Source: a virus
Taxonomy: Duplodnaviria > Heunggongvirae > Uroviricota > Caudoviricetes
Length of the DNA: 49,580 nt
Strand: one strand, 5' to 3'
IMG/VR virus record: IMGVR_UViG_3300033144_005510
The translations under genes and the position numbers were made by a program. Numbering within the stretch: the stretch's first letter is position 1; every line of letters begins with the position of its first letter. Shown piece by piece: positions 18,576 through 42,186 of the stretch. Under the pieces are notes generated by a model. It searched no databases. It saw nothing but the letters and a program-made list of their open reading frames with translations, and was not told the DNA's origin.

Positions 18576-18617
18576 TTTTAAATTTTCAATTTTTTTATAT
18601 ATGGAGTTTCTTAAACA

Positions 18618-19631: not shown

Positions 19632-19655
19632 GAAACCTGTTGTTTAAATAATTTG

Positions 19656-19689: not shown

Positions 19690-19708
19690 ATTAACTTTAG
19701 GGAATACG

Positions 19709-22266: not shown

Positions 22267-22302
22267 TTTATGATTAATATTCTTTCTAGGGGAGAATAAA
22301 AA

Positions 22303-24888: not shown

Positions 24889-24919
24889 TTAATTTAAAAA
24901 AAGAAAGGACAAATAGGAA

Positions 24920-25453
24920 ATGAAAGATAATAATATTGGAAAAACAGGCGTAGATTCACTTAGAGTTGACGGAATGCAAATCGGTAATCTCCCCCTTGGT
25001 CAAGGAAATGAGGCCAAGGAGGGATTAGCCGAGTTCTTGAAATCAGATCGAGAAACTAAAAGAAGCAATATTGCTGCTAAATTCCCTAAACATAACGTGA
25101 AATTTCTACAGAGCCAAATCAAGGAGTGCGAAGGAAATATTAAAAAGATTAAAAATTTCAAGCAGGATCTAAAACAGAAGATTGGTGAGTACAGACTTTT
25201 GATTAAAGAAGTTACTTTGGCTGATCAGCAAATTAAAGAATTAGATCCTGAAGAGCATAAAGAACAGATTAAAAATATTAGAAGAAAAACTCCTCCTTAT
25301 AATATTGAAGCTTTAAATCAACAAATTGAGCAATTTGAAGAAGCGATTGAGCGATGTGATTCTACCATAGAAAAGGATTATGATAGCATCAGTGAGATTA
25401 GAGAAGTTCTAGCTCTTGCGGAACAAAGAGATAAAGAATTAAGAAATACATAA
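24920..25453 (+). CDS. coiled-coil protein (possible assembly chaperone)
   Basis: K/E/Q-rich heptads, unlike the flanking G/T-rich genes. Confidence 0.6.
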   Translation: MKDNNIGKTGVDSLRVDGMQIGNLPLGQGNEAKEGLAEFLKSDRETKRSNIAAKFPKHNVKFLQSQIKECEGNIKKIKNFKQDLKQKIGEYRLLIKEVTLADQQIKELDPEEHKEQIKNIRRKTPPYNIEALNQQIEQFEEAIERCDSTIEKDYDSISEIREVLALAEQRDKELRNT

Positions 25454-25479
25454 AAATAATATAATAAGAGGTGTTATAG

Positions 25480-28431
25480 ATGGTTACTAGGGATGATTTA
25501 ACCGTTGATTATTTGGAAAGTCCGAGAATCATCGAAATTGCCGCACCATCTACTGAAATCACTATGCAGGATTTAGTAGATACTGTCCGCATAGATGAAT
25601 ATAGTTTTTCTACTCCAGGTATGGCCAACCCCAAACTCCTCAATGCTTCTGGTAAGGAAGACTTGGGGGGCGGGGTTTTGGTTGGTATTACTGCTGACCT
25701 TCAAGATGCACAGCTTTCTTTCCAAGCAAGAAGAACTCCCGCTGAGACTGGAACTGTTACTACTGGTAGCGGCGCACAGGCTGGTAGTCCTTTAGGGCCA
25801 ACCTATAATTTTATTGATACCAATGCTGATTTCGTTGCTGCTGGAATTCAAAGAGGTTCTTTAGTAATTAATTTTACTGATCATAGTATTGCTGACGTGG
25901 TTGAAGTAATATCTCCTACAGAATTGCGTACTAGAATATTGGTCAATGGAACTGATAATTTATATGAAGTCGGTGATGAGTATCAAGTATTTAATATAAC
26001 CCAATGTAATGCTACTGGTGGTAACTTAGTTGCACAAGATGATGTTGGTTCTAGAATTACCTCTATATTTCCTTCAGCTTTTGTGCAAGTCGTCCGAACC
26101 GCTTCGTCGTCCGCTACGCTTCAGGAACAATTAGACATTCAGTATGCTAGTTTCAATGACGGTGTTAGTGTTGATTTAACGACTAGTAATAGCGGTACTA
26201 CTTATCCAACTGGAACCCCTAGACAACCAGTTAATAATTTTGCGGATGCCTTGCTTATTGCTGCTGAAAGAGGGTTTAAAAGAATTTATGTAATTGGTAA
26301 TGCTACTCTTGATGGCGGAAATGATTTTACTGATTTTGAGTTTGTCGGAGAATCTGAGACTAAAACGACAATAACTATTGATCCAGCTGCCGTCGTTACT
26401 AATTGTGAATTTCGTAGTGCTACTATCACTGGAACTCTAGATGGTGGTGCTGTTATCACGGATGCTATTGCTCAGGATTTAGATTTTATTGATGGAATTA
26501 TTAAAAAATCTGGTTTGCTTGGAACTCTTACTTTAAGTGGACTTAATCCGACATTACAAATTGTCGATTGTCATGAATCTGATTCTAATGGTCCCATAAT
26601 TGACTTTGATGGAAGTGGAACTGGTTTAATCATGACAAATTATCATGGTAAAGTAACTTTATCAAATAAGAATGGTCTTGAGACTGCATTTTTAGATATG
26701 TCGTCTGGAGAAATTGTTATAGATAATAGTGTAACAACTGGAAATGTAACTCTTCGCGGTGTTGCCAAATGGGCTAATAAATTTACTTATACTGGTGGCG
26801 CTTCAATTGTTGATGAAACAATCTTTACAAGAGTTGATGAAACGCACGGTCAGGTTGTTCGTAGTGTGTTCCTTGATGAAACTGCTTTAACTAATGGAAA
26901 TGGTTATCAAGGCGCTCCATTTAATAATTTCCCAGATGCTGTTCAAGCAGTTAGTGATAGAAATTTAACGCATCTTGAAATTCTAGGTGATGTTGCATTA
27001 GATAGAAATATTGATGGGTATACTATAACTGGTGAAAATCTTCCATATATTGATATGAATAATTTTAGTGTTGGTTCTACAAACTTTATAAAATGTATTT
27101 TAACAGGACAGCAAAATGGAGGCGTTCCATTTCTTGAAACCTGCGGGATGATTGACGTAAGTGGGGCCAATGGACAAGCAAACGTTATTGCTTTAGGTGG
27201 AACTATTGAGGTAGCTAATGGATGTAATATTCTTTTCAATAATGTGACTCCTATTCAGGCCAATTCTGATATTACGGTAGACTTTGGTGGGCATATTGAT
27301 GACAGCTGTGCTGTTGACTTTGAAAATGCTCATGGTGACTTCATCGTTACGAATATGGCTAGTTCTGGCGACCTTTTTGAAATCAACTTTTTGTCTGGTA
27401 AAATAACGATAGATAACAGTTGTGTTTCTGGCACTATTATTCTAAACGGAACTGCGGATTGGTTAAACCCAGATTTCACAGGCGGTGCTACTATCGAGAA
27501 TCGCCTAATTAATCCAGAAGGTATTCAGTTTTCTGAGTTTATTGATGGATCAGTTTACATTGATGAAAATGAGCCAGTCGCTGGTACGTTTTTCCCTCAT
27601 GGTACAGTTCGTCTTCCCTGCAAGAATGATGCTGATGCAAAAACAGTTTATCAAGCAAACAATATTAGAAATGTTACTATTGAAAGCGATGTTACGTTAA
27701 CAGCAGATCATGATGATATTAATTTCTTTGGCAGAAGTCCTAGAACAACTACTCTTACAGTAGGGGGAGCTGTTACTACAAGTAATTGTGAGTTTGAGAA
27801 TTTGCTTCTTACTGGTGTATTAACTGGTAATACATATATTACTCAATGTGCATTGAAAGATGTTGCTGGGCTAATTGGTCACTTTGAACAGTGTGTTATC
27901 CGAGAGGGAACTAATACTTTGGGTGGTGCTGGTATTGCCATGTTTAATAAATGTGTTGCAGTTTCTGCTTCAGGTCCAGGTACAGATATCCCAATTATAG
28001 ATTGTGCAGGAGCTGGTCAATCAGTAGCTTTCCGTGGACTTATTGGTGAAGTTAAAATTCAAAATAAAACAGGTGCAGAGCCTATGTCTCTTGCTTTAAA
28101 TGGCGCAAGGGTAGAGCTAGATGCCACCGTGACAAACGGAAACATTCGTGTGTTTGGAGTAGGTGAGCTTATAGATAATTCTGGTGGTACGGCTGTAGTA
28201 GATAGAGATGAGCTTGTTAGTCCTCAATATGTTATGGAAGACGTTTGGGAAGCTACCGCAGCATCGTTTGATACTGCTAATTCCATGGGCCAAGTTATGA
28301 ATGATTTGTGGGCTATGTCGGCTGGTAAAATAGTTGAAAGCCCAGCTGGTACATTTACTTTCTATGATAGAGATAATACTACTGTTAGATATATTTTGAC
28401 TAAGGCTGGCAATGAAAGGAATAGAACCTAA
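25480..28431 (+). CDS. fibre/spike-like virion protein with three tandem beta-helix units (983 aa)
   Basis: Three units opened by GTPRQPVNNFADA, GYQGAPFNNFPDA and GTVRLPCKNDADA; C-terminal TFTFYDRDNTTVRY. Confidence 0.65.
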   Translation: MVTRDDLTVDYLESPRIIEIAAPSTEITMQDLVDTVRIDEYSFSTPGMANPKLLNASGKEDLGGGVLVGITADLQDAQLSFQARRTPAETGTVTTGSGAQAGSPLGPTYNFIDTNADFVAAGIQRGSLVINFTDHSIADVVEVISPTELRTRILVNGTDNLYEVGDEYQVFNITQCNATGGNLVAQDDVGSRITSIFPSAFVQVVRTASSSATLQEQLDIQYASFNDGVSVDLTTSNSGTTYPTGTPRQPVNNFADALLIAAERGFKRIYVIGNATLDGGNDFTDFEFVGESETKTTITIDPAAVVTNCEFRSATITGTLDGGAVITDAIAQDLDFIDGIIKKSGLLGTLTLSGLNPTLQIVDCHESDSNGPIIDFDGSGTGLIMTNYHGKVTLSNKNGLETAFLDMSSGEIVIDNSVTTGNVTLRGVAKWANKFTYTGGASIVDETIFTRVDETHGQVVRSVFLDETALTNGNGYQGAPFNNFPDAVQAVSDRNLTHLEILGDVALDRNIDGYTITGENLPYIDMNNFSVGSTNFIKCILTGQQNGGVPFLETCGMIDVSGANGQANVIALGGTIEVANGCNILFNNVTPIQANSDITVDFGGHIDDSCAVDFENAHGDFIVTNMASSGDLFEINFLSGKITIDNSCVSGTIILNGTADWLNPDFTGGATIENRLINPEGIQFSEFIDGSVYIDENEPVAGTFFPHGTVRLPCKNDADAKTVYQANNIRNVTIESDVTLTADHDDINFFGRSPRTTTLTVGGAVTTSNCEFENLLLTGVLTGNTYITQCALKDVAGLIGHFEQCVIREGTNTLGGAGIAMFNKCVAVSASGPGTDIPIIDCAGAGQSVAFRGLIGEVKIQNKTGAEPMSLALNGARVELDATVTNGNIRVFGVGELIDNSGGTAVVDRDELVSPQYVMEDVWEATAASFDTANSMGQVMNDLWAMSAGKIVESPAGTFTFYDRDNTTVRYILTKAGNERNRT

Positions 28432-28619
28432 TGTCGGCTGATTTAACATTAATCTCTACCCATGGTTGGTATACTGGTACTGCAATAGACGAGGAGCTTA
28501 CTCCTATTTCAACCTACGGTTGGTTTTTTGATTCGGGTGTTGTAGTTCCTGGTGATCCTGATTTAGTATTTTTCGCATTAGTTATTCAACGACTCATCGA
28601 CATAGATTTAACGAGGTAA
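28431..28619 (+). CDS. 62-aa virion-associated micro-protein
   Basis: Stop-start overlap with the upstream gene; tandem ISTHGWY/ISTYGWF; C-terminal GDPDLVFFALVIQRLIDIDLTR. Confidence 0.65.
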   Translation: MSADLTLISTHGWYTGTAIDEELTPISTYGWFFDSGVVVPGDPDLVFFALVIQRLIDIDLTR

Positions 28620-28624
28620 TATAA

Positions 28625-29380
28625 ATGGCAGACAATGTACCGATTACACCTGGAGCTGGGGTTAATATAGCAGCCGATGAGATACTAGGCGTAAAATACC
28701 CTAGATCTAAAATGGTTATTGGTGCTGATGGCTCTAATGACGGGGATGTTTCCGACTCTAATCCAGTTCCCATGAAGATTCGTGGTGATGAGTTCTTTTC
28801 TGGTGCCACAAAATATGACGCTAAAGTAACTGAAGATGGCGAACTGGCTACTACTAGTACCGAACGTGAGCGAAATGTTTATGCTGTTGTTCATGATGAT
28901 GCAGTTGGTACTGGAAATACTGATTGGATCTTAATTGACCTGGATGATACGGTTAATTTCCCTCATGATGCCAGTGGGCGAATTGACATTTCTACTATAA
29001 ATGTTCACCTAGCTCAAGCCTCTGGAAACCCTGAAGGCGAATTTGAGATTGGTGTTATTACCAGGATAGACGGTGTTGACTCCGATATTTGTTGGGCATT
29101 TGCTGTAGATTTCAATTTGCCAGTTAATACTGATGTTAGAGAAGATTTTAATTTTGCACCTTCTCAATTAAAGTTTGAGGTTTCAGGTGGCGATACAACC
29201 AGAATAATTAGTGATTACAAGATTTTAAACGATAGCAGTATTAATACGGGCGTTTCTATGAATAGTCCAAGAGGTGCGGGGACGGTAACGCCAGCTGTTG
29301 GAGATATTGTTCTTAGAGTTACTAATGGTTCTGGTCAATTAAAAATGTTTTGTGGTGTTATGTATCACGGGGAACCTTAA
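28625..29380 (+). CDS. virion structural protein (251 aa)
   Basis: GAGGT SD; N-terminal MADNVPITPGAG...DVSDSNPVPM pattern recalled from phage structural proteins. Confidence 0.65.
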   Translation: MADNVPITPGAGVNIAADEILGVKYPRSKMVIGADGSNDGDVSDSNPVPMKIRGDEFFSGATKYDAKVTEDGELATTSTERERNVYAVVHDDAVGTGNTDWILIDLDDTVNFPHDASGRIDISTINVHLAQASGNPEGEFEIGVITRIDGVDSDICWAFAVDFNLPVNTDVREDFNFAPSQLKFEVSGGDTTRIISDYKILNDSSINTGVSMNSPRGAGTVTPAVGDIVLRVTNGSGQLKMFCGVMYHGEP

Positions 29381-30553: not shown

Positions 30554-33500
30554 ATGGCTAATACAGTAAAAAATAATCAGGGCGGTGACTCTGGTAATTC
30601 TAATAATGGTAGAATTATTATTAAGACTGGTAGAATAAATACTCAGTCTTTAGATTCCATTGGATATAGTACTTTTCCAATAGAGGATTTTGACAACAAC
30701 GGATTGGGTGAAGGTCCAAATCTAGATATTCGTTTTGATGAAATTCGTTATTGGACTGGTGATTTAGCGGCTGATGGTTCTGGTAATCTACCCCCAATAT
30801 CCAGTAATAATTTCTATACATTAAATCAGGGCGATTCTTTAGTCGTTGCTAGTGGCGACGGTGTTCTCAGTAATGATACCGATCCTAACGGCGATCCTCT
30901 GACCGCATCCGTTACCGTTTATCCAACTTATGCTACAGCGGGTTATCGTGATGCTAGTCCTAGTGAACTGTTTGTATTTACTGCTCCTTCTAATTTAAGT
31001 GTCACTAATGTTGATCTTACAGTTGATGGTTTTGCTTCTGGTCAGGCGTTAACTATCGCTGGAACAACTTTGAATGACGGTGTTTATACCATTAATACTG
31101 TTACTGCTGGTGTTATTACTGTAGATGAAACCTTTACTAATGAAGGCCCGTTGCTTGCTGGTTCGGCATCTGGCACAGGATTTATATTTAATTCTGATGG
31201 TTCTTTCACGTATTTCCATGATGATTCTGCTGTTAATTCTGATTCATTTACTTATGCAGCAACCGACCCATCAGGTCTATCTGATACTGCTACAGCCAGC
31301 TTTACAATTGATCTAAAACCAACAGCTAATAATAATTCTTATGATCCTCCCACTTACGTAATTCAACAGGGAGAAGCCAATTATCTTGTTAACGCTGCTA
31401 ATGGCGTGCTTGTTAATGATAGTGATCCAGAAGGCGACGTTTTCCCAGATTTGACTGCTGCTGTAGTTGCTACTACTAGTAATGGTACGTTAATATTAAA
31501 CGCAGATGGTAGTTTCGATTATACTCATAATGATACTGTTACAAGTGGGGATACATTTACTTATAATGTAACTGATAGTGCTGGAAATGTTAGTAATACA
31601 GCTAGTGTTAATCTTTACATTAATCCAAGACCAACCGCTAATGATATCTCCGCTCCAGTAGTTTGTCAGCAGAGTGGTGTTATTAATGTTATTGCTGCCA
31701 GCGGCGCTTTATCAAACGACACAGACCCAGAAGGTCAAGCGTTGACCGCTTCTTTGGTCAGTGGTCCTAGCAACGCATCGGCGTTTACTTTAAATGCTGA
31801 TGGTTCTTATGATTATACTCACGACGGAACTGCTACCAGCGGTGATTCATTTACTTATAATGCTGTTGATATTTATGGCGGTGTATCCTCTGCTTCTGGT
31901 ACTGTAAGTATTACGATTAATCTTACTCCTGATGCTAATAATATTACTGCTCCTGTGGTTGTTCAGCAAAGTGGTACGATTAATATTCCTGCTGTTAGTG
32001 GCGTCTTGTCAAATGACACTGATCCAGAAGGCGGCGGTTTAACTGCTTCTTTAGTTAGTGGTCCAGATAATTCTTCATCTTTCACGTTGAATACGGATGG
32101 TTCGTATAACTATACACACGACGGAACTGCTACAAGTGGAGATGCTTTTGTTTATACCGCTACTGATAATAATGGGGCTAGTGATAACGCAACCTGTAGT
32201 ATTACTATTAATCTTACTCCTAATGCTAATAACATTACGGCTCCAGAGCTTGTCCAACAGAGTGGTACGATCAATATTGGTGCTGTTAGTGGTGTATTAT
32301 CAAACGATACTGATCCAGAAAATGGAACGTTGACTTCGACTATTCTTTCAAGTCCAAGTAATGCTTCGTCATTTACCTTAAACTCTGATGGTTCCTATGA
32401 TTATACTCATGATGGCACTGCGACCAGTGGAGATTCTTTCACATATACTTTAAGTGATGGGGCTGGAGGAACTGATACAGCAAGATGTGATATTACTATT
32501 AATTTGTGGCCTAATGCCAATAATGATACTTCGCCAATTACCTGCCCAAATAGCGGCACTATTAATATACCAGCTGTTAGCGGTGTATTGGCAAATGATA
32601 CTGATCCAGAAGGCCAAACTTTAACAGCTACTGTGCTTGCTAGTCCTAGTAACGCCTCAGCGTTTACTTTAAATTCAGACGGTTCATATGATTATACTCA
32701 TGATGGAAGTGCTACCAGTGGCGACTTCTTTACTTATACTGCAAGTGATGGACAGGGCGGAAGTGATACGGCAAGATGTGATATTACTATAGAAGTTGCT
32801 GGTACTCCTATTGCTAATGACGATGCAGCGTCTGTGGACAATGATACTATAACTAGTGGCGTTGTGCTTATCGACGTACTCGCTAACGATACTGATCCTA
32901 ATTCATTGCCGCTCACTATTAATGCTTTTACGCAGCCTTCTAGCGGAATTGTTACTCAGGTTGGTGAAGAGTTACAATATACGGCTAATGCTGGATTCCA
33001 TGGGTCTGATACATTTTACTATGACTGCACAAACGGCTCACTGGTTTCAAATTCAGGACAAGTTGATGTTACTGTAAATCTTGTTTCAAGAACAGTACTG
33101 ATTGGTAGCACTGGCGATTATGCTAACTGGACAGCTTTCTGTCAATCAAACAGTGGTGAGTACGCATTCTCCGATCCTTCGGAAGCTGGGGCTTTGCCTT
33201 TAACAGCGATTTTCATAGAGGGTGAAGTTCATACGGCTGCTAGATATACTCATGATTACTTCCAGGGAACCTGGGATGAAATTGCTACAGAACTTACGGT
33301 TACTAGCCAAGGGTTTACTGGCAAGCCTTATGGTACTCCAGGCGGTAATGGCACTATTTTGGAGCATAATTATTCTGACAATGGTTTTGGCCATGGTAAT
33401 AATGCAAATCTTTTTGGAAAAATAACTTGGACAGAAATAGAAATAGATGCTCCGAATTCTAATGGTGCGAATCGCGGCTTGTTTACATTCAGATATTGTC

Positions 33501-36500
33501 CGAATTTAGATTTTACTGTAGATCGTTGTTTATTACACGGTTATACCAATAATAATAGCTTAGGTGGTTTATTCCATTGTAGAGATGACCATGGTGAAAT
33601 TAAGATTACTAACAATCTTATTTACGGTCTCCAAGGAACAGGCTCAAGTGTTGGTATGTTTTTAAGCGTTACTCCAGCGGAAGAAGCAGATAACTCTATT
33701 AGAGTATATAATAACACGGTTTTGGACTGCGAGGTAAATAATCTCACAAGTTCTTTGATTAAGGTTTTAAATACTGATAAAGTTGACCTCAAGAATAATG
33801 TTCTTACTTGTTCGGGAACTCGCCCAGCAACCTTGGCTAGAAATTCTGTGGAAGGTGATGCAAATAGAGAGTTTACCTTTAATGATGTAGACCCAGATAC
33901 TATTACTGCTGGAGGTGCTAGTCCTGGTAGCTTTATAACCGATGGATTTGAGTCTGGAATGAACGTTATCGTTAACGGAACAACAAGTAATAACGGTACT
34001 TATAAAATTACCGCTGTAGCAGCAACGACTCTTACTTTAGATGCTGCTGAAACTTTGACATCGGAAGGTCCAGTTGGTAGCGGGTGTATTTTATCGGCAG
34101 GAACTTTTGTAAATTCAAATAGTGAAGGTAATGTCCTTGACGACAACAGTGGTAGTGACAATGACATCTTTAATATTGCTATTTACGAGTCAGGCGAAAC
34201 TAGTGATGTTTACGTCAATCCTTCTTTAACTAATTTGGATCTGACTCATAAGTCTACAAGCCCTGCAATTAATGTTGCCACGACCCTAACTCTTGCTAGT
34301 GGAATAGATATTAATTATATCACTCAGCCTGCTCTTGACTTTGTTGATCGTGTTAGTGGCGCAGCCAATTGGAATGCTGGCGCTAGTACGGATGTGGCTT
34401 CTGGTGCGCCTTTGTCGATGCCAGCTTGGGAAGATACCTGGGTAAGATACGATGAAATTCTAACCGAACCAAGCGGCACTCTTCTAATGTCTCGTAAAGA
34501 GTTTAGAGATGGCTTTGGTGCTGTTATACATGATAATACTGATACTATCAATATGACAGCTTCTAGAGTTGATGACAACGGTGTTTTAAGAATTATCGGT
34601 GGTTCTGCTTCTGGAAATTATGATATAGACGCTCAAGATGAGATGATGACATTCTTGAGATCTTTGAAACATCAAACTCATATAAAAGCTGTTGACTCGT
34701 CTGCAACTGAATATGTATCGCCAAGTGGAAATATTTTTGGTATTATTTCTGATCAGATTAATACCAATAGTCCTTCGCCTAAACATAGCAGTACTTTTGC
34801 GGCTGTAAGCGAAATGATTTGTTATCCCACTACAGACTCTTTGTTTATAGAACAAGGTATTGAAGGAGATAGCAAGCTTGTTGCAAGAGGTAATCTTCAA
34901 TATCGTCGTAGATTAGATCCTCCGTCTGGCGAATGGAGAACAACCTTGGGTATGCATAGGGTTCACCCAACCTATGGAATAGGCGACACAGACGGTACTA
35001 AATACTGGAATACACTAAATGGAATGATAAGCAACTTGGCTCCAGATACAGAATATGAGGTAAAAATTGATGTTTCTGTTCAGTCAAGTCCTATCTCTGG
35101 TGAGGCCACCGCTGATGGCGTTGCTATTACGTTTGTTGATGATGTAACCGATTACTTTATGTGTACGGCAGACCTTGAAAATCCAGCCGATCAAAATAAC
35201 ACTGACACTATCAATGTATCCAGATTATCAAGTATTGATCAAGAAGCATTTAGACCATTTGTTAGTGGCATGATTGTAACTGTTAGTAACTCTAGTAGTA
35301 ATGACGGTAATTATGAAATAGATAGTGTTACTTATGAAACTCCTACTGCTATCGTTGCTTCTGCTGGAAGAACGCTTACATTTACTGCTGCTGGTAATAC
35401 TATTACTGGTAGTACTGGTGATTTTGTAGCGGATGGCGTTAAACCAGGAATGTCGCTAACTGTTACTGGTACTTCAAATAACAACGAAACTTACGCAGTA
35501 TCTAGTGTTACTTCTAGTGTTATTGATTGTGCGGGTTCGCCTGTAATGACCGATGAAGGTCCATTAAGCTCGTCTGCAACTTTGACACCATTTGGTACTT
35601 CCATGACGGTATCTTCTGGCACTTTGACTAGCGAAGGTCCAAGTTTTAGTGCTCAGATACAGGGTACGCTTACTCCCTCTGGAACTGCTAGTTATGAGAT
35701 GACCGCAAAGACAAAAGCACTTCCTCGCGAAGGTATTGGTGTTATAATTGCCGAAGGAATTGACACTTCAAGAGAATTTACATTTACTGACTCTTTAGGC
35801 GCTCCAGATACTATCACATGTCCAAGTGGAAGCTTTATTACAGACGGTTTTGCTTCAGGTAATTTATTAACTGTTCTTGGTACTGCAAATAATAATGGTC
35901 AATATACTATCAATGCTGTTACTGCTGGAACTCTTACTTTAGATTCTGGAGATAGTTTAGTTAATGAAGGGCCAATTGGCAGTGGTGTTGTTTTAGGTGC
36001 CAAGAATGTTTGGAATGTTTATAATCGAGCTGAACTTGATACTGTACTTGCAGACAGTGTGAACGTTGCTTCTGGTGACATTATTATCATGCATGAGGAT
36101 GATAGAGTTGCCACACAAGTACAAGCTTCTGCCAGTAGAATTTTGAATTTTAAGCAGGCCACTAAAGTTCAGGCCAGCGCTACTAACACTCTTACCTTCA
36201 CTGCTGGAACAAATGAAGTAACAAGAAGTGACGGCGGCTCGTTTATTGATGACGGGTATGCATCTGGTATGCAGCTTCGTGTTTGTGGTCAAAACGGATT
36301 TTTTGCTACTCCTAATAGAAGAATTACTCTTGTTGAAGGTGGCGGTTCTAACGATACAATCCGTATTTCTGCTGGAGACGTGCTGGCAGACGGATGGGAA
36401 GTTGGAATGGGAATAACTCTTGATGGAATGGGTAATGACAAGGTTGTAACGATAGATTCTGTAGCAAGCTCAGGGGCAAATCAAGCCAGCGGTATTACTG

Positions 36501-39500
36501 GTTCTCAAGAATTTTCTTTTGCAACGAATGAAACCATTACGTCAAATGATAATTTTAACTTCCTTGACAACGGGTTTATCAAGGGGATGCAAATTATTGT
36601 TGATGGTAGTGCGAGTAATGATGGAAGATATGTTTTAAGCAATGTTTCAAGTGGTGTGCTTACTGTAGATAGATATCAATCAAGTATCGCAGGAGATGAT
36701 TTAACAACTGAAAATAATGTTGGCAATGGACTTACTATTAATGGTAGTTGCCAAATCATTACCTTAGATGCTGGGGATGATATTAGTGATCAAGGTCCAG
36801 AAAACGGTGGTGAAAACAGAAATGGTTCCATGTGTGCAAAAATTGATAATATTGGTTGGTACGATATTACTGCTGTTACTGCCAGTGGAATAACTGTTGG
36901 TTCAGCGTTTACAAACGAAACCAATTCTAAAATTTGCACTCTTGAAACTGGTGGTTTAGTAGAAGCGAGCGGTGCTTCCCCAGGAGATTTTGTGGCTGAC
37001 GGATTTATTGAGGGTATGTCTCTTGTAGTCAATGGAACGGCTTCTAATGATGGAAGATATACTATTGCTAATGTAAGTACAACAAAACTAGGTATGATCG
37101 GTAGCTTTACTGATCAAATGACCGAAGAATTAAATGTTACTTCTACTGCTACATTAGATGGAAATGGAGCTGCTTATTATACTGATCCAACTGGTTATAA
37201 CCCAGGAGAAAATGGATTTGGTCAAAATAATTCACCAAGCTATGGTGAATCTATTACTATTTCTCAAGTTGGTGGAACTGCCAGTAATCCACTTATTATT
37301 AGAGGTAATGGTGATGTTAGAACTCCTCGCTGGACTATTGCGAATGACTGGATTTGGTTTGATAATATAAAGTTTGAGCCTATAATGAGAAATCGGATTA
37401 ATGATACGTCATCGTCTTTTGTAAATACCGTCGTTATTAATGCTAAAGGAGGCGGCTTGTCACATGATGGAATTATGATGACTCGCTGTGAATTAAGTTG
37501 GGACAAGTGCCAAACTTATGATCTAAACGGTGAAGGTATTGAAAACGTAAAAGACGGATATTGGCATAATATAGCCGCTCAAGTTGTTGCATCAGACAAT
37601 GATATTGTTTCGCATATGTATGTATCAGACTTTACGGTTGGGGCTACTGTGCAGAATGGTATAGATAATACGCCTGATACTACTAACAATTTCAATAACA
37701 AACCTTCTAATACTGGATGGATGATAAGAGAAGGTTTTGAAGTTCGGTCGACTGCGGGAACTATGATTTATTCCACTTTCTTTAATACCATGGATGCTTG
37801 GAGTGCTGGTGGAACAGGTGCTGCAAACGAGGGAGAAGCATGTGGCAATGATTTTTGGAACATAAAAACCGTTCAACATTATGACGACATTATTGAAAGC
37901 GATTATTGTGGTTGGGGCAACCATATAAGGGAGCACAGGCACTCAAAATACAGAAAGCAAGAAAGAAACCCCATTGGTCATCCTGGTGCTTCTAGTGTTA
38001 GAAGTACTCTTGACGGTATTTCGGTATGGTCTCTTGGTCAAGGAGGAACCTGGACTTTTGGACATTATCAGTCTTACATACAGGGAACTGGCATTAGTAT
38101 TAAGACTGATAGTACCACCTTTTTGAAACTTAGACCGCCGTTGGATGCTAACAGCTTGAGTTCAGCTCATTCTCATATGTGGTGGAACAGAGGACAAGGA
38201 AGCTCGTCCTCGGTGTATCAGGTTCCTGGTCAATCAAATGGTTTGTGTTGGGCGGGTAATTACTGGGCAGCCAGAAGACATGTAGCAGGTAGTGATACAT
38301 TTGGCGATGACTTGTTCCAAGAAACTGGAGGTTCTTCTCTTGGTGGCGTCATGAAGGGAGAAATGTGGTGGGACAAAAATTCGTATTATGAATTATGGGG
38401 CGATGTTCAATACAGTGGTCCTGGTTCTCGTCAAGGTTATCCTGGCACATCAATAGCTGCTATTAGGGATACTTGGAGTCAAGCAAGAGATGTAAAAGTT
38501 GATGAAAACTCTGTAGAAGACCTTAACATAAGATCTGAAAGAAGTGATGAAACAACTTCTGATGATACTTTAAGTTTCAATAATGCAAACCCAGATACTA
38601 TAACAAGAAGTACTGGAAGCTTTGTAACAGACGGTTATTCGGCTGGCATGACTGTCACCGTTCTTGGTAGTGCTAGTAATGACGGGACTTATACTGTAGC
38701 TGCTGGAGGCGTTGCTGCTACAACTTTGACTTTAGAAGGTACAGATTCTCTAACTGCTGAAAGTTCCGTTGGTAATGCAACGGCATCTGCTAGTGGAAGT
38801 AGAACCTTTAAGTTCGTTTCTCTTTTCGGTGATGGTGGTGTTGATTATGTTGAATGTAGTAGCGGTAGCTTTATTACCGATGGATTTAAAGCTGGTCAAT
38901 ATCTAACGGTTACTGGTGTTGGTTCAAAAGACAATAATGGTGAATACAGAATAGCAAATGTGACCGCTAGTAGAATTGAGCTTAATACTCATGACCGATT
39001 TATCAATGAAGGTCCATTAGATGGTTCTACCGCAAATACTTGTACTTTGACTGGAAAAACCATTGTTAAGGGAGAAAAACAGGTAACATCAGTTTTCTTA
39101 AATCCTCCACAGATGCCTGTTGACGTAAAGAAAACCCCGCATGAACAATTAGGAAATTCTCCTGAGAATGGTGTTCGTAGTTACTGGGAAACAGAATTTA
39201 ACGACGGTGCTAAAGGAACCATGGATTTGGTTAAAGCCAATCCTACTGGTACTATGTATGGTGCTGGTGTTCAAGATTCTGATTTTGATGGCGCGGAAAT
39301 GTTTTTGAATCCTTATCTTGATAATGCAGTTGATTCTGGTATTATTAATAAGCTTAGTCTGCCTACCAAATCTGCTAGAGATATTGGTCCAGGGGATACG
39401 GCTATGGGATCTTATCCAGTTGGCACAAGATCGTATACTGATTATCTCGCCTATCAGCTTCCCGACGGTTGGGAAGTAAAAGGAAGCGTTCCTGCTGGAT

Positions 39501-39616
39501 TAGGTATTGTTTCTGGCTCAGGAGAGCAAAGAATTATTGTTGGTAGAACAGACAACACTGTGGCCGTATTGGTTGAATTTGAGCCAGGGAATAATCCTTA
39601 TAATGGCATCTTGTAG
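30554..39616 (+). CDS. giant 3020-aa virion adhesin/depolymerase: anchor, 7 cadherin-like repeats, beta-helix, Fn3, second beta-helix, ~11 inserted beta modules
   Basis: Single uninterrupted ORF; VLxNDTDPEG...LNxDGSxxYTH repeats; VYNNT/LKNNV beta-helix rungs; NLAPDTEYEVKI Fn3; HYDDIIESD beta-helix motif; no signal peptide. Confidence 0.8.
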   Translation: MANTVKNNQGGDSGNSNNGRIIIKTGRINTQSLDSIGYSTFPIEDFDNNGLGEGPNLDIRFDEIRYWTGDLAADGSGNLPPISSNNFYTLNQGDSLVVASGDGVLSNDTDPNGDPLTASVTVYPTYATAGYRDASPSELFVFTAPSNLSVTNVDLTVDGFASGQALTIAGTTLNDGVYTINTVTAGVITVDETFTNEGPLLAGSASGTGFIFNSDGSFTYFHDDSAVNSDSFTYAATDPSGLSDTATASFTIDLKPTANNNSYDPPTYVIQQGEANYLVNAANGVLVNDSDPEGDVFPDLTAAVVATTSNGTLILNADGSFDYTHNDTVTSGDTFTYNVTDSAGNVSNTASVNLYINPRPTANDISAPVVCQQSGVINVIAASGALSNDTDPEGQALTASLVSGPSNASAFTLNADGSYDYTHDGTATSGDSFTYNAVDIYGGVSSASGTVSITINLTPDANNITAPVVVQQSGTINIPAVSGVLSNDTDPEGGGLTASLVSGPDNSSSFTLNTDGSYNYTHDGTATSGDAFVYTATDNNGASDNATCSITINLTPNANNITAPELVQQSGTINIGAVSGVLSNDTDPENGTLTSTILSSPSNASSFTLNSDGSYDYTHDGTATSGDSFTYTLSDGAGGTDTARCDITINLWPNANNDTSPITCPNSGTINIPAVSGVLANDTDPEGQTLTATVLASPSNASAFTLNSDGSYDYTHDGSATSGDFFTYTASDGQGGSDTARCDITIEVAGTPIANDDAASVDNDTITSGVVLIDVLANDTDPNSLPLTINAFTQPSSGIVTQVGEELQYTANAGFHGSDTFYYDCTNGSLVSNSGQVDVTVNLVSRTVLIGSTGDYANWTAFCQSNSGEYAFSDPSEAGALPLTAIFIEGEVHTAARYTHDYFQGTWDEIATELTVTSQGFTGKPYGTPGGNGTILEHNYSDNGFGHGNNANLFGKITWTEIEIDAPNSNGANRGLFTFRYCPNLDFTVDRCLLHGYTNNNSLGGLFHCRDDHGEIKITNNLIYGLQGTGSSVGMFLSVTPAEEADNSIRVYNNTVLDCEVNNLTSSLIKVLNTDKVDLKNNVLTCSGTRPATLARNSVEGDANREFTFNDVDPDTITAGGASPGSFITDGFESGMNVIVNGTTSNNGTYKITAVAATTLTLDAAETLTSEGPVGSGCILSAGTFVNSNSEGNVLDDNSGSDNDIFNIAIYESGETSDVYVNPSLTNLDLTHKSTSPAINVATTLTLASGIDINYITQPALDFVDRVSGAANWNAGASTDVASGAPLSMPAWEDTWVRYDEILTEPSGTLLMSRKEFRDGFGAVIHDNTDTINMTASRVDDNGVLRIIGGSASGNYDIDAQDEMMTFLRSLKHQTHIKAVDSSATEYVSPSGNIFGIISDQINTNSPSPKHSSTFAAVSEMICYPTTDSLFIEQGIEGDSKLVARGNLQYRRRLDPPSGEWRTTLGMHRVHPTYGIGDTDGTKYWNTLNGMISNLAPDTEYEVKIDVSVQSSPISGEATADGVAITFVDDVTDYFMCTADLENPADQNNTDTINVSRLSSIDQEAFRPFVSGMIVTVSNSSSNDGNYEIDSVTYETPTAIVASAGRTLTFTAAGNTITGSTGDFVADGVKPGMSLTVTGTSNNNETYAVSSVTSSVIDCAGSPVMTDEGPLSSSATLTPFGTSMTVSSGTLTSEGPSFSAQIQGTLTPSGTASYEMTAKTKALPREGIGVIIAEGIDTSREFTFTDSLGAPDTITCPSGSFITDGFASGNLLTVLGTANNNGQYTINAVTAGTLTLDSGDSLVNEGPIGSGVVLGAKNVWNVYNRAELDTVLADSVNVASGDIIIMHEDDRVATQVQASASRILNFKQATKVQASATNTLTFTAGTNEVTRSDGGSFIDDGYASGMQLRVCGQNGFFATPNRRITLVEGGGSNDTIRISAGDVLADGWEVGMGITLDGMGNDKVVTIDSVASSGANQASGITGSQEFSFATNETITSNDNFNFLDNGFIKGMQIIVDGSASNDGRYVLSNVSSGVLTVDRYQSSIAGDDLTTENNVGNGLTINGSCQIITLDAGDDISDQGPENGGENRNGSMCAKIDNIGWYDITAVTASGITVGSAFTNETNSKICTLETGGLVEASGASPGDFVADGFIEGMSLVVNGTASNDGRYTIANVSTTKLGMIGSFTDQMTEELNVTSTATLDGNGAAYYTDPTGYNPGENGFGQNNSPSYGESITISQVGGTASNPLIIRGNGDVRTPRWTIANDWIWFDNIKFEPIMRNRINDTSSSFVNTVVINAKGGGLSHDGIMMTRCELSWDKCQTYDLNGEGIENVKDGYWHNIAAQVVASDNDIVSHMYVSDFTVGATVQNGIDNTPDTTNNFNNKPSNTGWMIREGFEVRSTAGTMIYSTFFNTMDAWSAGGTGAANEGEACGNDFWNIKTVQHYDDIIESDYCGWGNHIREHRHSKYRKQERNPIGHPGASSVRSTLDGISVWSLGQGGTWTFGHYQSYIQGTGISIKTDSTTFLKLRPPLDANSLSSAHSHMWWNRGQGSSSSVYQVPGQSNGLCWAGNYWAARRHVAGSDTFGDDLFQETGGSSLGGVMKGEMWWDKNSYYELWGDVQYSGPGSRQGYPGTSIAAIRDTWSQARDVKVDENSVEDLNIRSERSDETTSDDTLSFNNANPDTITRSTGSFVTDGYSAGMTVTVLGSASNDGTYTVAAGGVAATTLTLEGTDSLTAESSVGNATASASGSRTFKFVSLFGDGGVDYVECSSGSFITDGFKAGQYLTVTGVGSKDNNGEYRIANVTASRIELNTHDRFINEGPLDGSTANTCTLTGKTIVKGEKQVTSVFLNPPQMPVDVKKTPHEQLGNSPENGVRSYWETEFNDGAKGTMDLVKANPTGTMYGAGVQDSDFDGAEMFLNPYLDNAVDSGIINKLSLPTKSARDIGPGDTAMGSYPVGTRSYTDYLAYQLPDGWEVKGSVPAGLGIVSGSGEQRIIVGRTDNTVAVLVEFEPGNNPYNGIL
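30791..33079 (+). repeat. seven tandem ~97-aa cadherin-like (Big_9/tandem-95-type) Ig repeats
   Basis: Each has P.AN..., NDTDP.G and (in six) LNxDGS.xY.H, closing with D.FTY...D; repeats 3-6 are the most similar. Confidence 0.85.
30935..39060 (+). repeat. dispersed and nested ~75-90 aa beta module, about 11 copies
   Basis: Consensus R.(L/F)TF...TI....G.F..DG(F/Y)..G(M/Q)...V.G...N(N/D)G.Y.I..V.....L..EGP; cores near 31025, 33941, 35258, 35432, 35843, 36251, 36389, 36566, 36998, 38629, 38879. Confidence 0.85.
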
Positions 39617-39679: not shown

Positions 39680-39904
39680 ATGGCTAATACTGTTAAAAAT
39701 AATGCTGGTGGTGATACTGGTCAAGTCCAAAACGGTATCACAACTATCAAGACTGGTCGAACAACTGTTCAACAGTTGAATTCTCCTGGTTTTGATGATA
39801 CTTTTGATATCGCAAGCTTTGATTTAGACGCGACTCCTCAAGATGGTACTAATCTTGACGAACGTTTTGATGATCCCCGTTACTATACTGGCGATGCTCC
39901 ATAG
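39680..39904 (+). CDS. 74-aa standalone paralog of the giant protein N-terminus (putative anchor protein)
   Basis: 40 of 74 residues identical to 30554 N-terminus by manual alignment (MANTVKNN.GGD.G...NG...IKTGR...NLD.RFD..RY.TGD). Confidence 0.8.
   Translation: MANTVKNNAGGDTGQVQNGITTIKTGRTTVQQLNSPGFDDTFDIASFDLDATPQDGTNLDERFDDPRYYTGDAP
39798..39818 (+). repeat. 21-nt exact direct repeat, copy 1
   Basis: ATACTTTTGATATCGCAAGCT, identical to 43965-43985. Confidence 0.85.
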
Positions 39905-39913: not shown

Positions 39914-40444
39914 ATGTCTACAAATCCTTTTAATGGCATGATTACCGATAGTTTTAAGCAGTTGCATGTAAACATGATAACCGAGGTTATTCGAGGTTGT
40001 TCTGTTGATTGTAAGCTGTATTTCGGCGTTACAAAATATAGTGATTGTGCTAATTGCGTTTATGATCCAATTGGAAATAAATCCGCAAATAGATATCAAA
40101 CAGGAGGTCCAGCCCCATTTGCCATGGGTCAATGTCCTATGTGCGGTGGTGCTGGAAAAATAGCAGACGAGCAAACCGAAGACATTAAACTTTGTCCTCT
40201 TTATGATTACAAAAGTTGGATTCCAGGCATTAGTTCAAATGTTCAATCTCCAGAAGGCTTTGTTCAAACCGTTAGTGCTTTTAGTACATTTTCTACTTTA
40301 CGTAGAGCAAAAGAAATTATTATAGACACTTCTCTAGATAAGATAGTTAGGCCTCGTTTTGAAATACATAGTGAGCCAGAACCTTGCGGAATGGGGGCTA
40401 GTGATTTTTGTTTAACAATGTGGAAGAGAATAGAAAATGGCTAA
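39914..40444 (+). CDS. head closure / neck protein with two CxxC pairs
   Basis: DCANC and CPMCGG motifs; synteny with neck genes (inference). Confidence 0.55.
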   Translation: MSTNPFNGMITDSFKQLHVNMITEVIRGCSVDCKLYFGVTKYSDCANCVYDPIGNKSANRYQTGGPAPFAMGQCPMCGGAGKIADEQTEDIKLCPLYDYKSWIPGISSNVQSPEGFVQTVSAFSTFSTLRRAKEIIIDTSLDKIVRPRFEIHSEPEPCGMGASDFCLTMWKRIENG

Positions 40445-41093
40445 AGCGTCATTAAAATTAGTCGAGAGTAAAAAAGAAATAGAAAAAAGGATTGTAAAAG
40501 CTCTCGCTATAGATATAAATAAAGCTTTAGATAAAGTTATTACACGTTCTTTAAAGCCAATTCAAGATTTAGTAAAAATTTCAATATTAAATCAACCTGA
40601 AGTCTCTTCTTTAAGTGGGGGCCAGTTGGCTGGAGAATTTGGTTTGCCAGACGGAAGAAATAGAATTGAAAGTATTGTTCAGATATGGACTAAAGGAATA
40701 AAAATTTCTAAAAATAAAGCTATTTTAAAAAATGGTAAAATACAAGCTGGTTTTACTATAAACATGGTTCCAAGCGACTATTCCGATGTTTTAAGCAGTC
40801 CCTTTGCTGCTTTAGTAACCGAAAAAGGACAGCAGTTAAACTGGCTTGAGTGGCTTCTTAGATTTGGAGATAGGGCCATAATTAGGGATTATAATATTAC
40901 TTTTGATAGTTCTAAAACAAAGCGTTCTAGAACTGGTATTGCTATCATGCAAGGTGCAAGAGGGTCTACTTGGAGAGTCCCTCCTCAGTTTGCTGGAACT
41001 GATAATAATAATTTTGTTACTAGGGCTTTGGATGATATTCAAGATGAAGTTACGTTAATAATTCAAAATCAATTAAAATCAGCTATACGGTAG
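40437..41093 (+). CDS. neck / tail completion protein
   Basis: Basic protein ending WRVPPQFAGTDNNNFVTRAL; position between closure and terminator genes. Confidence 0.5.
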   Translation: MAKASLKLVESKKEIEKRIVKALAIDINKALDKVITRSLKPIQDLVKISILNQPEVSSLSGGQLAGEFGLPDGRNRIESIVQIWTKGIKISKNKAILKNGKIQAGFTINMVPSDYSDVLSSPFAALVTEKGQQLNWLEWLLRFGDRAIIRDYNITFDSSKTKRSRTGIAIMQGARGSTWRVPPQFAGTDNNNFVTRALDDIQDEVTLIIQNQLKSAIR

Positions 41094-41103
41094 GTTTACA
41101 GTC

Positions 41104-42072
41104 ATGCCTTCAACAAATTATTCATTTAAGCAGGTTAATCACATTGGTGATACATACCTTATGAATAAACTAGAAGTTAATTTAAAAACATGGTTCGACT
41201 GGGCTTTGTTACGTGCTGGTGGCTGGACAAATGTAAGTATTCCATTGCCAGGAGCATACGGTGGTGATTTTAGCACTTTGAGACAAGTTGATGATCCATC
41301 TTACACTGCTGGAACAGTATGGGAGTCGGTTAGAAAAGATTGGGTATGGGAAACTGGGGTAGATTATGTTGGTACGGATACGGTAACTTATAATCCAACT
41401 AGTCCAGCCGTAGTTCAAGTGGACAGTGTTGTAACTGCACCAGATCATATTAATTATCCTTTAGGAAGAGTTATTTTTGCAACTCCCATATCCTCTAGTT
41501 CGACTGTACAGGCTCAATATAGTTATAGATATGCTCAAGTTTATCGTGCCGATGATGTTCCGTGGTGGAATGAATTACAATATCGTTCATTTAGACCAGA
41601 CGATGTTCAGTTTACAGAACTAGAAGATGGTAGCTGGTCTGTTGGTTCTCAACATAGATTTCAAATGCCTTGCGTAATTATTGAGGCGGTTCCTAGATCT
41701 ATGTCTCGACCTTATCAGTTAGGAGATGGTGCTGCTTGGGTGGAGCAAGATGTGCTAGTTCATGTTTTAGCTGAAAATAGAAATGATAGAAATAAACTTG
41801 TCGATATTTTTCGCGGCCAATTTGACGCAAGTATCGACTTATTTGACAATGACGCAATAGCTGCTGCTGATGCTTATCCTCTGGACTATAGAGGAGAAAT
41901 TGTGGATAGTTCCCAAACGTATCCAGCTTTAGTTAATCCAGATACAGGTTATGTTTGGAACCAGTCTTCTGTTAGATTTAGTCGGACAGAAGTGGCTGAA
42001 GTAGAATCTTTGAATTCTAGACTTTTTGAAGGTGTGGTTAGAATGACTTGTGAGATTATTTTAAATGATTAG
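41104..42072 (+). CDS. tail terminator-like protein with an inserted beta domain
   Basis: QMPCVIIEAV...VEQDVLVHVLAENRNDRNKLVDIF pattern just before the tail tube gene. Confidence 0.55.
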   Translation: MPSTNYSFKQVNHIGDTYLMNKLEVNLKTWFDWALLRAGGWTNVSIPLPGAYGGDFSTLRQVDDPSYTAGTVWESVRKDWVWETGVDYVGTDTVTYNPTSPAVVQVDSVVTAPDHINYPLGRVIFATPISSSSTVQAQYSYRYAQVYRADDVPWWNELQYRSFRPDDVQFTELEDGSWSVGSQHRFQMPCVIIEAVPRSMSRPYQLGDGAAWVEQDVLVHVLAENRNDRNKLVDIFRGQFDASIDLFDNDAIAAADAYPLDYRGEIVDSSQTYPALVNPDTGYVWNQSSVRFSRTEVAEVESLNSRLFEGVVRMTCEIILND

Positions 42073-42087
42073 TTTTTTCCCTTAATC

Positions 42088-42097
42088 GGTGTATAAT
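42088..42097 (+). promoter_or_regulatory. late promoter GGTGTATAAT
   Basis: Exact intergenic motif upstream of the tail tube gene. Confidence 0.7.
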
Positions 42098-42186
42098 TAT
42101 GCACAAACAGCGCCCATATTTTAATTAAAATATTATATTTTTTCGAAAAAATTGAAGTCATCTATTCCTAAAAGGAGAGTTTTCTG

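Follow-up and report, generated by a model that had tools for sequence, protein, structure and literature searches.

Recursive insertion of a domain family into itself has already been described for Si3 of the cyanobacterial RNA polymerase beta' subunit, in which HABAS or hybrid-motif domains are recursively inserted (PMC11515920; PMC13114784), six levels of nesting have been reported (PMC13114784) and adjacent copies sometimes swap strands (PMC11515920). The fibre-like protein P0001 is similar in that small beta-rich domains are carried inside loops of copies of the same family (A1-B1-C-B2-A2), several levels deep. However, its fold is an FCCH-like barrel and not the hybrid motif, its setting is an exposed phage fibre and not the trigger loop of a cytoplasmic polymerase, its levels are fewer (three, perhaps four) and its module also occurs within folds of other kinds and as simple tandem copies. 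P0001 represents a new fold and setting for self-insertion and, besides Si3, its closest described parallel among those found, is the sole case that the searches gave of one domain family recursively inserted into itself.

The FCCH domain of E1 enzymes is itself an inserted domain. The P0001 module resembles FCCH barrels (E1, PDB 4p22, 2v31, and 9qim; tail tubes, gp39 and gp13) in being a compact barrel of about 75–80 residues, but differs in having no sequence-level membership. FCCH is described as a six-stranded closed antiparallel barrel with Greek-key topology, which points outward on siphovirus tail tubes (gp39/gp13) (PMC13576161). A similar barrel in phi92 endosialidase (PDB 4hiz, residues 260–339) forms part of a phage host-recognition enzyme, although it is present as a single copy and is not nested. 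It is a polysaccharide-binding insertion of the catalytic domain. Rickettsia palindromic elements (RPEs) are repeated DNA of palindromic character across many genes of a genome; they share with P0001 the occurrence of extra in-frame peptide segments at surface-exposed parts of otherwise conserved proteins.

P0001 comes from a large uncultured aquatic phage and was found in a stretch of 49,580 nucleotides (the window). Its reading frame is uninterrupted across 9063 nt. The N-terminal side consists of a 70-aa anchor, cadherin-like repeats, beta-helix-like region 1 and an X domain, after which follow an Fn3-like domain, beta-helix 2 and a C-terminal domain. Seven cadherin-like repeats were identified by alignment and eight stretches by Pfam Big_9, with P0001 being above the Pfam threshold for bacterial cadherin-like/Big_9 families (PF17963, PF17892, PF17803) at 205.6 bits for Big_9 and 158.4 bits for Cadherin_5. 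A Pfam search of P0001 gave no match in beta-helix 2 (aa 2205–2670). A language-model feature search of this region, used as a lead only, gave a score of 0.96 for a right-handed parallel beta-helix (PF13229 clan), and among the top rows listed all those with a Pfam family were PF13229 or PF22842. One module, a beta-barrel of ~75 aa with seven strands, is present 11 times in frame (originally put at ~11), with eight copies contiguous and three split (HMM):

30554–39616, plus strand: giant fibre-like gene, 3020 aa, 11 module copies (ORF, Big_9/Cadherin_5 matches)
30962–31174, plus strand: copy inside cadherin repeat 1, aa 137–207 (HMM; ~80-aa insertion compared with repeats 2–7)
33866–34096, plus strand: copy apparently between coils of beta-helix-like region 1, aa 1105–1181 (HMM)
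35117–35344, plus strand: outer1 N-terminal part, aa 1522–1597, profile 9–49 (HMM)
35369–35590, plus strand: inner1, complete, aa 1606–1679, in the beta4-beta5 hairpin of outer1 (HMM)
35600–35674, plus strand: outer1 C-terminal part, aa 1683–1707, profile ~54–72 (spliced match, partner scan)
35771–36001, plus strand: intact copy in the linker leading to the beta-helix 2 cap, aa 1740–1816 (HMM; AlphaFold pLDDT 95.8)
36131–36157, plus strand: putative A first strand RILNFKQ, aa 1860–1868 (+1.3 bits; best orphan strand)
36179–36304, plus strand: B N-terminal part, aa 1876–1917, profile 2–36 (HMM, partner scan; pLDDT 74–89)
36317–36478, plus strand: C N-terminal part, aa 1922–1975, profile 9–51 (HMM; pLDDT 58–72)
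36503–36745, plus strand: D, complete and innermost, aa 1984–2064 (HMM; pLDDT 72–93)
36749–36838, plus strand: C C-terminal part, aa 2066–2095, profile 52–70 (HMM, partner scan; pLDDT 36–42)
36842–36952, plus strand: B C-terminal part, aa 2097–2133, profile 38–66 and last strand KICTLE (partner scan; pLDDT 73–93)
36953–37162, plus strand: A body, aa 2134–2203, profile 15–73, without adjoining first strand (HMM)
38564–38794, plus strand: tandem copy t1, aa 2671–2747 (HMM)
38798–39040, plus strand: tandem copy t2, aa 2749–2829 (HMM)

The module had been predicted to interrupt cadherin repeat 1, both beta-helices and the end of the Fn3 domain. The first of these agrees with the ~80 aa which repeat 1 has in excess of repeats 2–7, and the second beta-helix is broken in its N-terminal cap by nest 2 (B, C, and D, with A). 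The copy at aa 1105–1181 appears to interrupt the first beta-helix, its place between NN-type coils being read from the sequence. However, nest 1 (outer1 and inner1) and the copy at aa 1740–1816 were located in the linker following the Fn3-like domain, outside that domain.

Evidence for nesting was obtained with a module profile built from seven contiguous copies only. On this profile the break points of the split copies are complementary (B, 2–36 and 38–66; C, 9–51 and 52–70; outer1, 9–49 and 54–69), and each spliced copy matches in a single stretch (B, 2–66; C, 9–70; outer1, 9–72), the alignment succeeding for 11 of 11 copies after splicing. In a scan of the whole protein for C-half partners, with intact copies excluded, the top position for the N-half of B was aa 2098, at 50.0 bits vs. 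a median of 29.7 (sd 1.75, z about 11), and for C and outer1 the highest-ranking pair of positions was aa 2069 and 1685. In B, C and outer1 two segments with complementary ranges make up one complete domain. A guest itself hosts a further guest (depth at least 2), as the halves of B flank those of C, which flank D, and the order at ~36107–37165 is last-in-first-out: N(B), N(C), D, C(C), C(B). Inner1 lies within outer1 and, in the other nest, D lies within C and C within B. The nest expected at 35100–35680 was recovered in this way, with outer1 surrounding the complete copy 1606–1679. As for the four-deep nesting proposed at ~36107–37165, the B/C/D order was upheld by the complementary halves but the A level was less clear, as the putative first strand RILNFKQ, although ranking highest among orphan first strands that align at profile position 3, gave a gain of only 1.3 bits. 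The strand KICTLE (aa 2126–2131) can be assigned either to B as its last strand or to A as its first. Three nesting levels are demonstrated, and a fourth, A around B, is compatible with the data and probable. The strand exchange reported for Si3 bears on this A/B strand ambiguity.

The single copy at aa 1740–1816 was modelled by AlphaFold with a pLDDT of 95.8 and seven strands. A model of the nest (aa 1856–2140) left out the A body, and its deep alignment spanned D only, with about five rows for the remainder. The two halves of B, which are 180 residues apart, nevertheless had pLDDT values of 74–89 and 73–93, while the A first-strand segment had 36–40 in this model lacking the A body. For the C-terminal part of C the pLDDT was only 36–42 and no strand was called, so that C around D is based on sequence evidence. 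The top PDB matches of the nest model were single barrels of ~80 residues (9n71_B 103–184, 6e0v_A 708–792, and 9jlf_E 16–95), with E1 FCCH 4p22_B 218–296 also among them. These barrels aligned over 73–80 residues (rmsd 2.5–3.4 A), running from model residues 14–17 to 276–285, at Z 6.0–6.6, values within a range that is common for unrelated small barrels; matches restricted to the D range (model 133–218) had Z of 5.4 or less. Judging from the confidence values and the first and last aligned residues, B would form a discontinuous barrel. For B, the confident halves and the single barrels superposing across both are in line with the anticipated discontinuous domain. A complex prediction of the two B halves as separate chains gave weak support, at 0.34 vs. 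0.01 for the best of three controls. Custom alignments were employed, with runs agreeing in at least 95% of contacts and a partner pLDDT of at least 65. Among 80 solved complexes and 110 mismatched pairs, 58 and 2, respectively, attain the mark of this test, only 7 of the 80 complexes and both passing mismatches doing so at 0.60 or under.

Comparison with orthologues identified four module-free homologues of the carrier unit, namely an extra C-terminal unit of P0003 and three stand-alone metagenome proteins of ~1200 aa (L001–L003). All are colinear with P0001 aa 1288–3020 and no module matches were found in any of them. From the Fn3 end to the first helix coil they have 74 profile columns vs. 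719 aa in P0001, and when the modules were cut out in silico, one BLAST alignment spanned all three excision sites (E 2e-8). Because these four homologues and cadherin repeats 2–7 of P0001 lack the copies, the latter are additions to the carrier. P0003, from an ENA record (JGI for P0001), is a 94% identical relative with exactly the same module copies. Among the orthologues found, none was nested to an intermediate depth, and for this reason the order of insertion events is one that we infer. An N-F-F-C nest with its break at the same NDG loop is common to the orthologues P0014 and P0035 (34% identical).

Tandem arrangement is the normal occurrence of this module, and it is conceivable that there is no true nesting, with P0001 holding a decayed array in which copies lost C- or N-terminal halves and the half-copies serve as linkers or are disordered remnants. 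This would agree with the poor modelling of the C-terminal part of C and with the weak two-chain result. It is unlikely, however, as the break points of the three N-halves correspond on the profile to those of the three C-halves, and the halves follow a strict last-in-first-out order, the B halves are modelled confidently with single barrels superposing across both, the layout is kept in P0003 and an analogous nest is kept at 34% identity in P0014 and P0035. In addition, unequal recombination in a tandem array would be expected to regenerate whole copies and not orphan halves.

Taking together the complementary breaks, the AlphaFold model and the module-free homologues, the best reading is that of repeated in-frame loop insertion, including self-insertion. 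P0001 is probably a giant virion fibre or adhesin, in which a conserved carrier has been decorated with an FCCH-like barrel by repeated in-frame additions, some of them self-nesting. The carrier would comprise cadherin-like repeats and tailspike-like units (X domain, Fn3, right-handed beta-helix, and C-terminal domain). The barrel appears to be tolerated as a guest in surface loops of other folds and itself to accept guests, in two of its loops at least and probably in three (beta3-beta4 'NDG', the beta4-beta5 hairpin, and probably beta1-beta2); successive insertions into such tolerant loops would therefore yield discontinuous, nested domains. The copies may have arisen through intragenic duplication and illegitimate recombination, with selection retaining only loop insertions that still fold. 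The nest could then form a stiffer, branched arm with a double tether, in which four barrels project from the second beta-helix at its cap and offer host-surface polymers additional weak binding sites, and P0001 may reasonably be a branched multivalent protein.

It had also been suggested that the module is possibly a mobile coding element similar to RPEs; on this view a DNA cassette would insert in frame and the nest would record repeated transposition. The same module does lie in several host folds of one protein and in itself, like-shaped barrels occur across many kinds of phage virion proteins, and the module is present in 3551 protein clusters (50% identity), the longest of these proteins having 7868 aa. 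However, direct repeats at the junctions, inspected for target duplications, were not above chance (best exact 5–7 nt vs. a null mean of 6.3), inverted repeats were short and scattered with no pair bracketing a copy, and the long DNA repeats were cadherin repeats only. The copies look old and, as originally noted, are diverged at the DNA level; they are 22–62% identical at the protein level, and nested neighbours are not mutual closest relatives; the VQASAS/VQASAT repeat is identical at just 19 of 42 nt. No significant copy was detected in other reading frames of the 49.6-kb window, P0003 has an identical layout at 94% identity, and in most other proteins the module simply forms tandem arrays of 3–12 copies. 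P0001 thus differs from RPEs in having no DNA-level repeats, terminal symmetry, target duplications or copies in the window's other genes, and an RPE-like origin is very improbable.

Marginally less probable again is a self-propagating in-frame cassette, for which dedicated or hot-spot recombination would copy a ~225-nt unit into loops of virion genes, itself included. If true, the nest would be the fossil trace left by a mobile domain active at the protein level, as opposed to a series of rare accidents filtered by selection. The NDG break recurs in the unrelated giant protein lineage P0014/P0035 and the module is carried on many virion protein classes, observations which are compatible with such a cassette. 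Although the sequence is of metagenome source and repeats are able to mislead assemblers, there is next to no chance that mis-assembly of the contig or a frame error produced the nest, given a frame open over 9063 nt, DNA copies too diverged for assembler collapse or shuffling, and an independent record (ENA vs. JGI) encoding the same arrangement at 94% identity.

The different fold and the exposed viral protein suggest that self-insertion offers proteins a general way of building rigid, branched arms out of several domains. A natural barrel serving both as guest and as host in two or three loops would be useful for domain-insertion engineering and display scaffolds, and the module-free and module-laden tailspike-like units offer a clean system for studying the role of decorations in host binding.

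At the level of fold, the results agree with the proposed likeness to E1 FCCH. The joint best matches of a single module by VIA were the phi92 endosialidase barrel (Z 6.7, rmsd 2.6, 70 residues aligned, 16% identity) and E1 FCCH (4p22_B, Z 6.7), with Z of 6.3 to 9mc4_A and 5.0 to 2v31; according to the tool, Z values of 6.0–6.7 are also frequent between unrelated small barrels. Foldseek gave a probability of 0.99 to E1 FCCH, with TM of 0.48–0.55, and the module model has seven strands vs. six in the described FCCH barrel. Membership of PF16190 was not supported, as there was no match in P0001 at E up to 0.1 and, for 87 module sequences (E up to 1), it was not listed among the 25 families with most matches; it accounts for 12% of members in one same-shape ESM Atlas cluster. 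No sequence relative of the module was found in the PDB, and no Pfam or NCBIfam model fits it. Split copies now appear only as puzzling partial matches, and a curated module model with a nesting-aware parser would allow giant phage and bacterial surface proteins to be annotated better. In the ESM Atlas the module has TM of 0.75–0.89 to phage virion protein clusters, and structures of phage tail-tube, connector, terminator and nozzle proteins, whether solved or predicted, contain barrels of like shape. Of the 87 module sequences, 39 match PHROG 1236 ('head protein'); P0001 aa 150–193 match positions 52–95 of its 177 (E 3.6e-20), and as only part of the profile is covered, this indicates a domain in common but otherwise different proteins.

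The giant fibre-like protein P0001 was found to carry 11 copies of a beta-barrel decoration module of ~75 aa, in agreement with the original prediction of about 11. An HMM seeded with one obvious copy and iterated inside the protein gave 12-13 matches, part of them partial, and an independent yardstick profile was made from seven clearly contiguous copies only. Eight copies were found to be contiguous and three to be split.

Module copies of P0001 and the ORF that encodes it (aa numbers refer to P0001)
ORF of P0001: window 30554-39616, plus strand, 3020 aa, containing the entire nesting
Contiguous copies (eight, by HMM): aa 137-207, 1105-1181, 1606-1679, 1740-1816, 1984-2064, 2134-2203, 2671-2747 and 2749-2829
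Split copy outer1 (nest 1): profile 9-49 at aa 1522-1597; profile ~54-69 at aa 1683-1707
Split copy B (nest 2): profile 2-36 at aa 1876-1917; profile 38-66 at aa 2097-2133
Split copy C (nest 2): profile 9-51 at aa 1922-1975; profile 52-70 at aa 2066-2095

The profile ranges of the two parts are complementary in each of the three split copies, and in silico splicing gave a single-stretch profile match in every case (2-66 for B, 9-70 for C and 9-72 for outer1). As a partner control, each N-part was fused to every 40-residue window of P0001 outside the intact copies. The top partner of the B N-part protein-wide was at aa 2098 (50.0 bits vs a median of 29.7, sd 1.75), and the top two partners of the C and outer1 N-parts were at aa 2069 and 1685. 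On the basis of this control, the orphan parts are exactly three N-parts and three C-parts in last-in-first-out order. After splicing, each of the 11 copies could be aligned to the profile; their mutual identity is 22-62%, and the closest relatives of the nested copies are not their nest neighbours. Just short stretches of 60-80% identity are left between copies at the DNA level, in agreement with the divergence noted earlier. Given the profile, partner and identity results, the copy number, the copy within a copy at 35100-35680 (outer1) and the last-in-first-out order at ~36107-37165 (B and C) are real. Four cysteines lie a few residues off the nest junctions, at the end of the B N-part, the start and end of the C C-part and in the last strand of B (residues 1911, 2066, 2094 and 2128; window 36284-36286, 36749-36751, 36833-36835 and 36935-36937), and might form disulfides stapling the insertion points.

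A single module, folded by AlphaFold2 with an 87-sequence alignment from many proteins, was predicted to be a seven-strand all-beta domain (mean pLDDT 95.8, pTM 0.86). The break points sit in loops of this model, namely the beta3-beta4 'NDG' loop for B and the beta4-beta5 hairpin for C and outer1. A deep alignment on every nested copy was also attempted; however, MAFFT piled the homologues on one copy or divided them across copies, whether full modules, tandem windows or half fragments were used, and these alignments were discarded because false covariation would reach AlphaFold. For this reason the nest (aa 1856-2140) was modelled with a clean stack on D alone, the innermost copy, plus five natural rows, with the A body left out. 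The mean pLDDT of this model was 65 (74-89 in the N-part of B and 73-93 in its C-part, 72-93 in D, 58-72 and 36-42 in the N- and C-parts of C, and 36-40 for the 20 residues with the putative A first strand, modelled without the A body). Its top PDB matches were single compact barrels of ~80 residues each (phage Mystique tail tube 103-184, phi92 gp150 708-792, FCWL1 16-95, JBD30 baseplate 248-325 and E1 FCCH 218-296), in which 73-80 residues were aligned at an rmsd of 2.5-3.4 Å (Z 6.0-6.6) and which ran from model residues 14-17 to 276-285; matches limited to the D range (133-218) reached a Z of at most 5.4. The simplest reading of the model is that the two B parts, 180 residues apart, would make one barrel that ends with the strand KICTLE (aa 2126-2131). 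When the B parts were folded as separate chains, with a self-made alignment for each, the result argued weakly for this pairing (score 0.34, best of three controls 0.01). Of 80 solved complexes, 58 reached the mark of the test, as did 2 of 110 mismatched pairs, but passing scores of up to 0.60 held only seven of the 80 solved complexes together with both passing mismatches. Contact agreement in these runs was at least 95% and partner pLDDT at least 65.

Of the four-deep self-nesting originally proposed, three levels are secure from sequence comparison, with B, the outermost of these, supported by modelling, and the fourth (A around B) is judged modestly probable. The profile match of copy A (aa 2134-2203) begins only at position 15, the adjacent first strand being absent. 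When every 12-residue window of P0001 was put before A, the eight highest peaks fell on the first strand of each of the eight copies in which one is recognisable, and the best orphan window aligning to profile position 3 was QASASRILNFKQ at aa 1857, with a gain of just 1.3 bits. If KICTLE is the last strand of B, as suggested by the model, A would require RILNF; if it is the first strand of A, the nest would have three levels and one strand left over. A combination of the two is possible, because the recursively inserted domains of RNA polymerase Si3 at times swap strands (PMC11515920).

The carrier domains of P0001 also indicate insertion. Cadherin repeats 2-7 are like repeat 1 save for one ~80-residue gap holding the module, which confirms that repeat 1 is interrupted, and the copy at aa 1105-1181 appears to be flanked by NN-type coils in the first helix-like region. 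The sole close relative, P0003, a protein of 4001 aa from another data source, is 94% identical over aa 1500-2250 and has the identical set of copies. The frame of P0003 reads through where P0001 ends (…NPYNGIL*; window 39590-39616), and its aa 2838-4001 form an extra third tailspike-like unit of 1164 aa (X domain, Fn3, beta-helix and C-terminal domain) which is colinear with P0001 aa 1288-3020, lacks the module and shares 50, 25, and 40% identity with P0001 in the X domain, beta-helix and C-terminal domain, respectively. As P0003 reads on past the P0001 stop, related phages differ by a whole fibre-fused receptor-binding unit. Five loci were found when metagenomes were scanned for the X domain; the product of three of them is a complete, free-standing protein (1197-1317 aa) that has the domain order of the P0001 unit and no module or Pfam match.

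Module-free homologues from marine metagenomes (one locus TARA)
L001: 9491-13441
L002: 156-3758
L003: 1727-5317

These three also have a ~110-aa domain between X and Fn3 which is absent from P0001. The proposed comparison of orthologues thus gave one relative sharing every copy at matching sites and four homologous units without the module. A profile of these four matches P0001 at aa 1294-1386, 1436-1519, 2238-2462, and 2878-3010. From the Fn3 end to the first helix coil there are 74 columns in the homologues vs 719 residues in P0001, 606 of which are nest 1, the copy at 1740-1816 and nest 2. Once the modules were excised, P0001 could be aligned to the P0003 unit by BLAST in one piece across all three excision sites (E 2e-8). 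The distance from the cap motif (GD-I--P-GDF) to the first coil (ISI-G) is ~12 residues in the homologues vs ~375 in P0001, where it includes the 345-residue nest 2; the second beta-helix is therefore interrupted, as had been claimed. The Fn3 end is not, since nest 1 and copy 1740-1816 sit in linkers past the Fn3-like domain and not within it. The region at aa 2205-2670 looks like a right-handed beta-helix, with language-model features pointing to PF13229 (score 0.96) and no match from Pfam itself. Global alignments of P0001 with the module-free homologues smeared the homologues' middle domain over nest 1, and local and profile comparisons were used in their place. With only the nest (aa 1856-2205) as query, no homologue was found at E ≤1e-5, and IMG/VR scans with beta-helix 2 and with the X-domain alignment gave no relatives. 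BLAST of module-masked P0001 against the 149 other top module-bearing proteins found cadherin repeats to be the only shared carrier domains, so these proteins yield no orthologues.

Pfam and NCBIfam searches with module sequences found no consistent family (DUF5666 was matched by 7 of 87, best E 2e-4), and no PDB chain was related by sequence to the module or to P0001. PHROG 1236 ('head protein') was matched by P0001 aa 150-193 and 39 of the 87 module sequences, and PHROG 584 ('major tail protein') by five. By shape, the closest solved structures were the phi92 endosialidase barrel and the E1 FCCH domain (Z 6.7, a value common for small barrels); next came barrels from phage tail tubes, connectors and tail tips and from the P22 I-domain. 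The suggested likeness to E1-FCCH (PF16190) thus holds for fold shape, but no Pfam model fits. In the ESM Atlas the module aligned at TM 0.75-0.89 with clusters made up of tail-tube, terminator, connector and nozzle proteins of phages, one of which has PF16190 in 12% of members, and the exterior barrel of siphovirus tail-tube proteins has been named an FCCH domain in recent cryo-EM papers (PMC13576161; see also PMC13612043). When 1.84 billion representative proteins were searched with a profile, 3551 had the module at E ≤1e-3, many of them giants (up to 7868 aa and 15 matched stretches). Among the best 150 of these, the module is mostly in tandem arrays of 3-12 copies and clear nests are rare, occurring besides P0001 and P0003 only in P0014 (7116 aa) and P0035 (2989 aa). 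These two are orthologues (34% identical) with a common N-F-F-C nest, in which two tandem copies lie inside the NDG loop of a third (P0014 aa 676-913, P0035 aa 567-805), the loop also broken in B. This is an independent, evolutionarily stable self-insertion.

The data support loop insertion of a promiscuous decoration barrel. The mobile coding module originally envisaged, similar to Rickettsia palindromic elements, is not supported: flanking direct repeats at the eight junctions were 5-7 nt long (null mean 6.3), so target-site duplications are not above chance, inverted repeats were short with none bracketing copies, and other reading frames of the window had no significant module match. The sole module-like signal outside P0001 (window 22303-24888, plus strand, aa 725-758; 6.9 bits, i-E 0.18) is probably chance. 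A VQASAS/VQASAT echo precedes the A and B first strands at the protein level, with only 19 of 42 nt identical in the DNA. Tandem duplication, rejected from the outset, should leave an array without orphan halves, because homologous unequal crossing-over would regenerate whole copies; the orphan halves therefore point to whole copies inserted into loops. Illegitimate intragenic recombination would be the most economical source of such copies, with selection then keeping variants that still fold.

Domain insertion is common in proteins and nested insertion is a recognised minority, of which Si3 of the cyanobacterial RNA polymerase beta' subunit is the extreme case. The phenomenon in P0001 is the same, in another fold, protein class and location (the exposed part of a virion). 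No description of recursive self-insertion was found in the literature on this module and phage fibres, and the architecture of P0001 is both real and unusual. It may serve as a stiff, multivalent, glycan-binding arm.

The window looks like a tailed-phage genome portion, with a large terminase at 12100-14220. This was the only product identified by PHROG and Pfam scans of ten genes neighbouring P0001, and nearly all large structural-region ORFs (window 14275-29380 and 39914-43422) were without a match to either; in this phage lineage the virion module has next to no annotation. In P0001, Pfam recognised solely cadherin-like repeats (Big_9 in eight stretches, Cadherin_5 and Cadherin_4) in the first 850 residues. 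An ORF of 74 aa on the plus strand (window 39680-39904), 63 nt past the P0001 stop, shares 56% identity with the first 70 residues of P0001 (E 2e-22) and is likely a free copy of the fibre N-terminal anchor.
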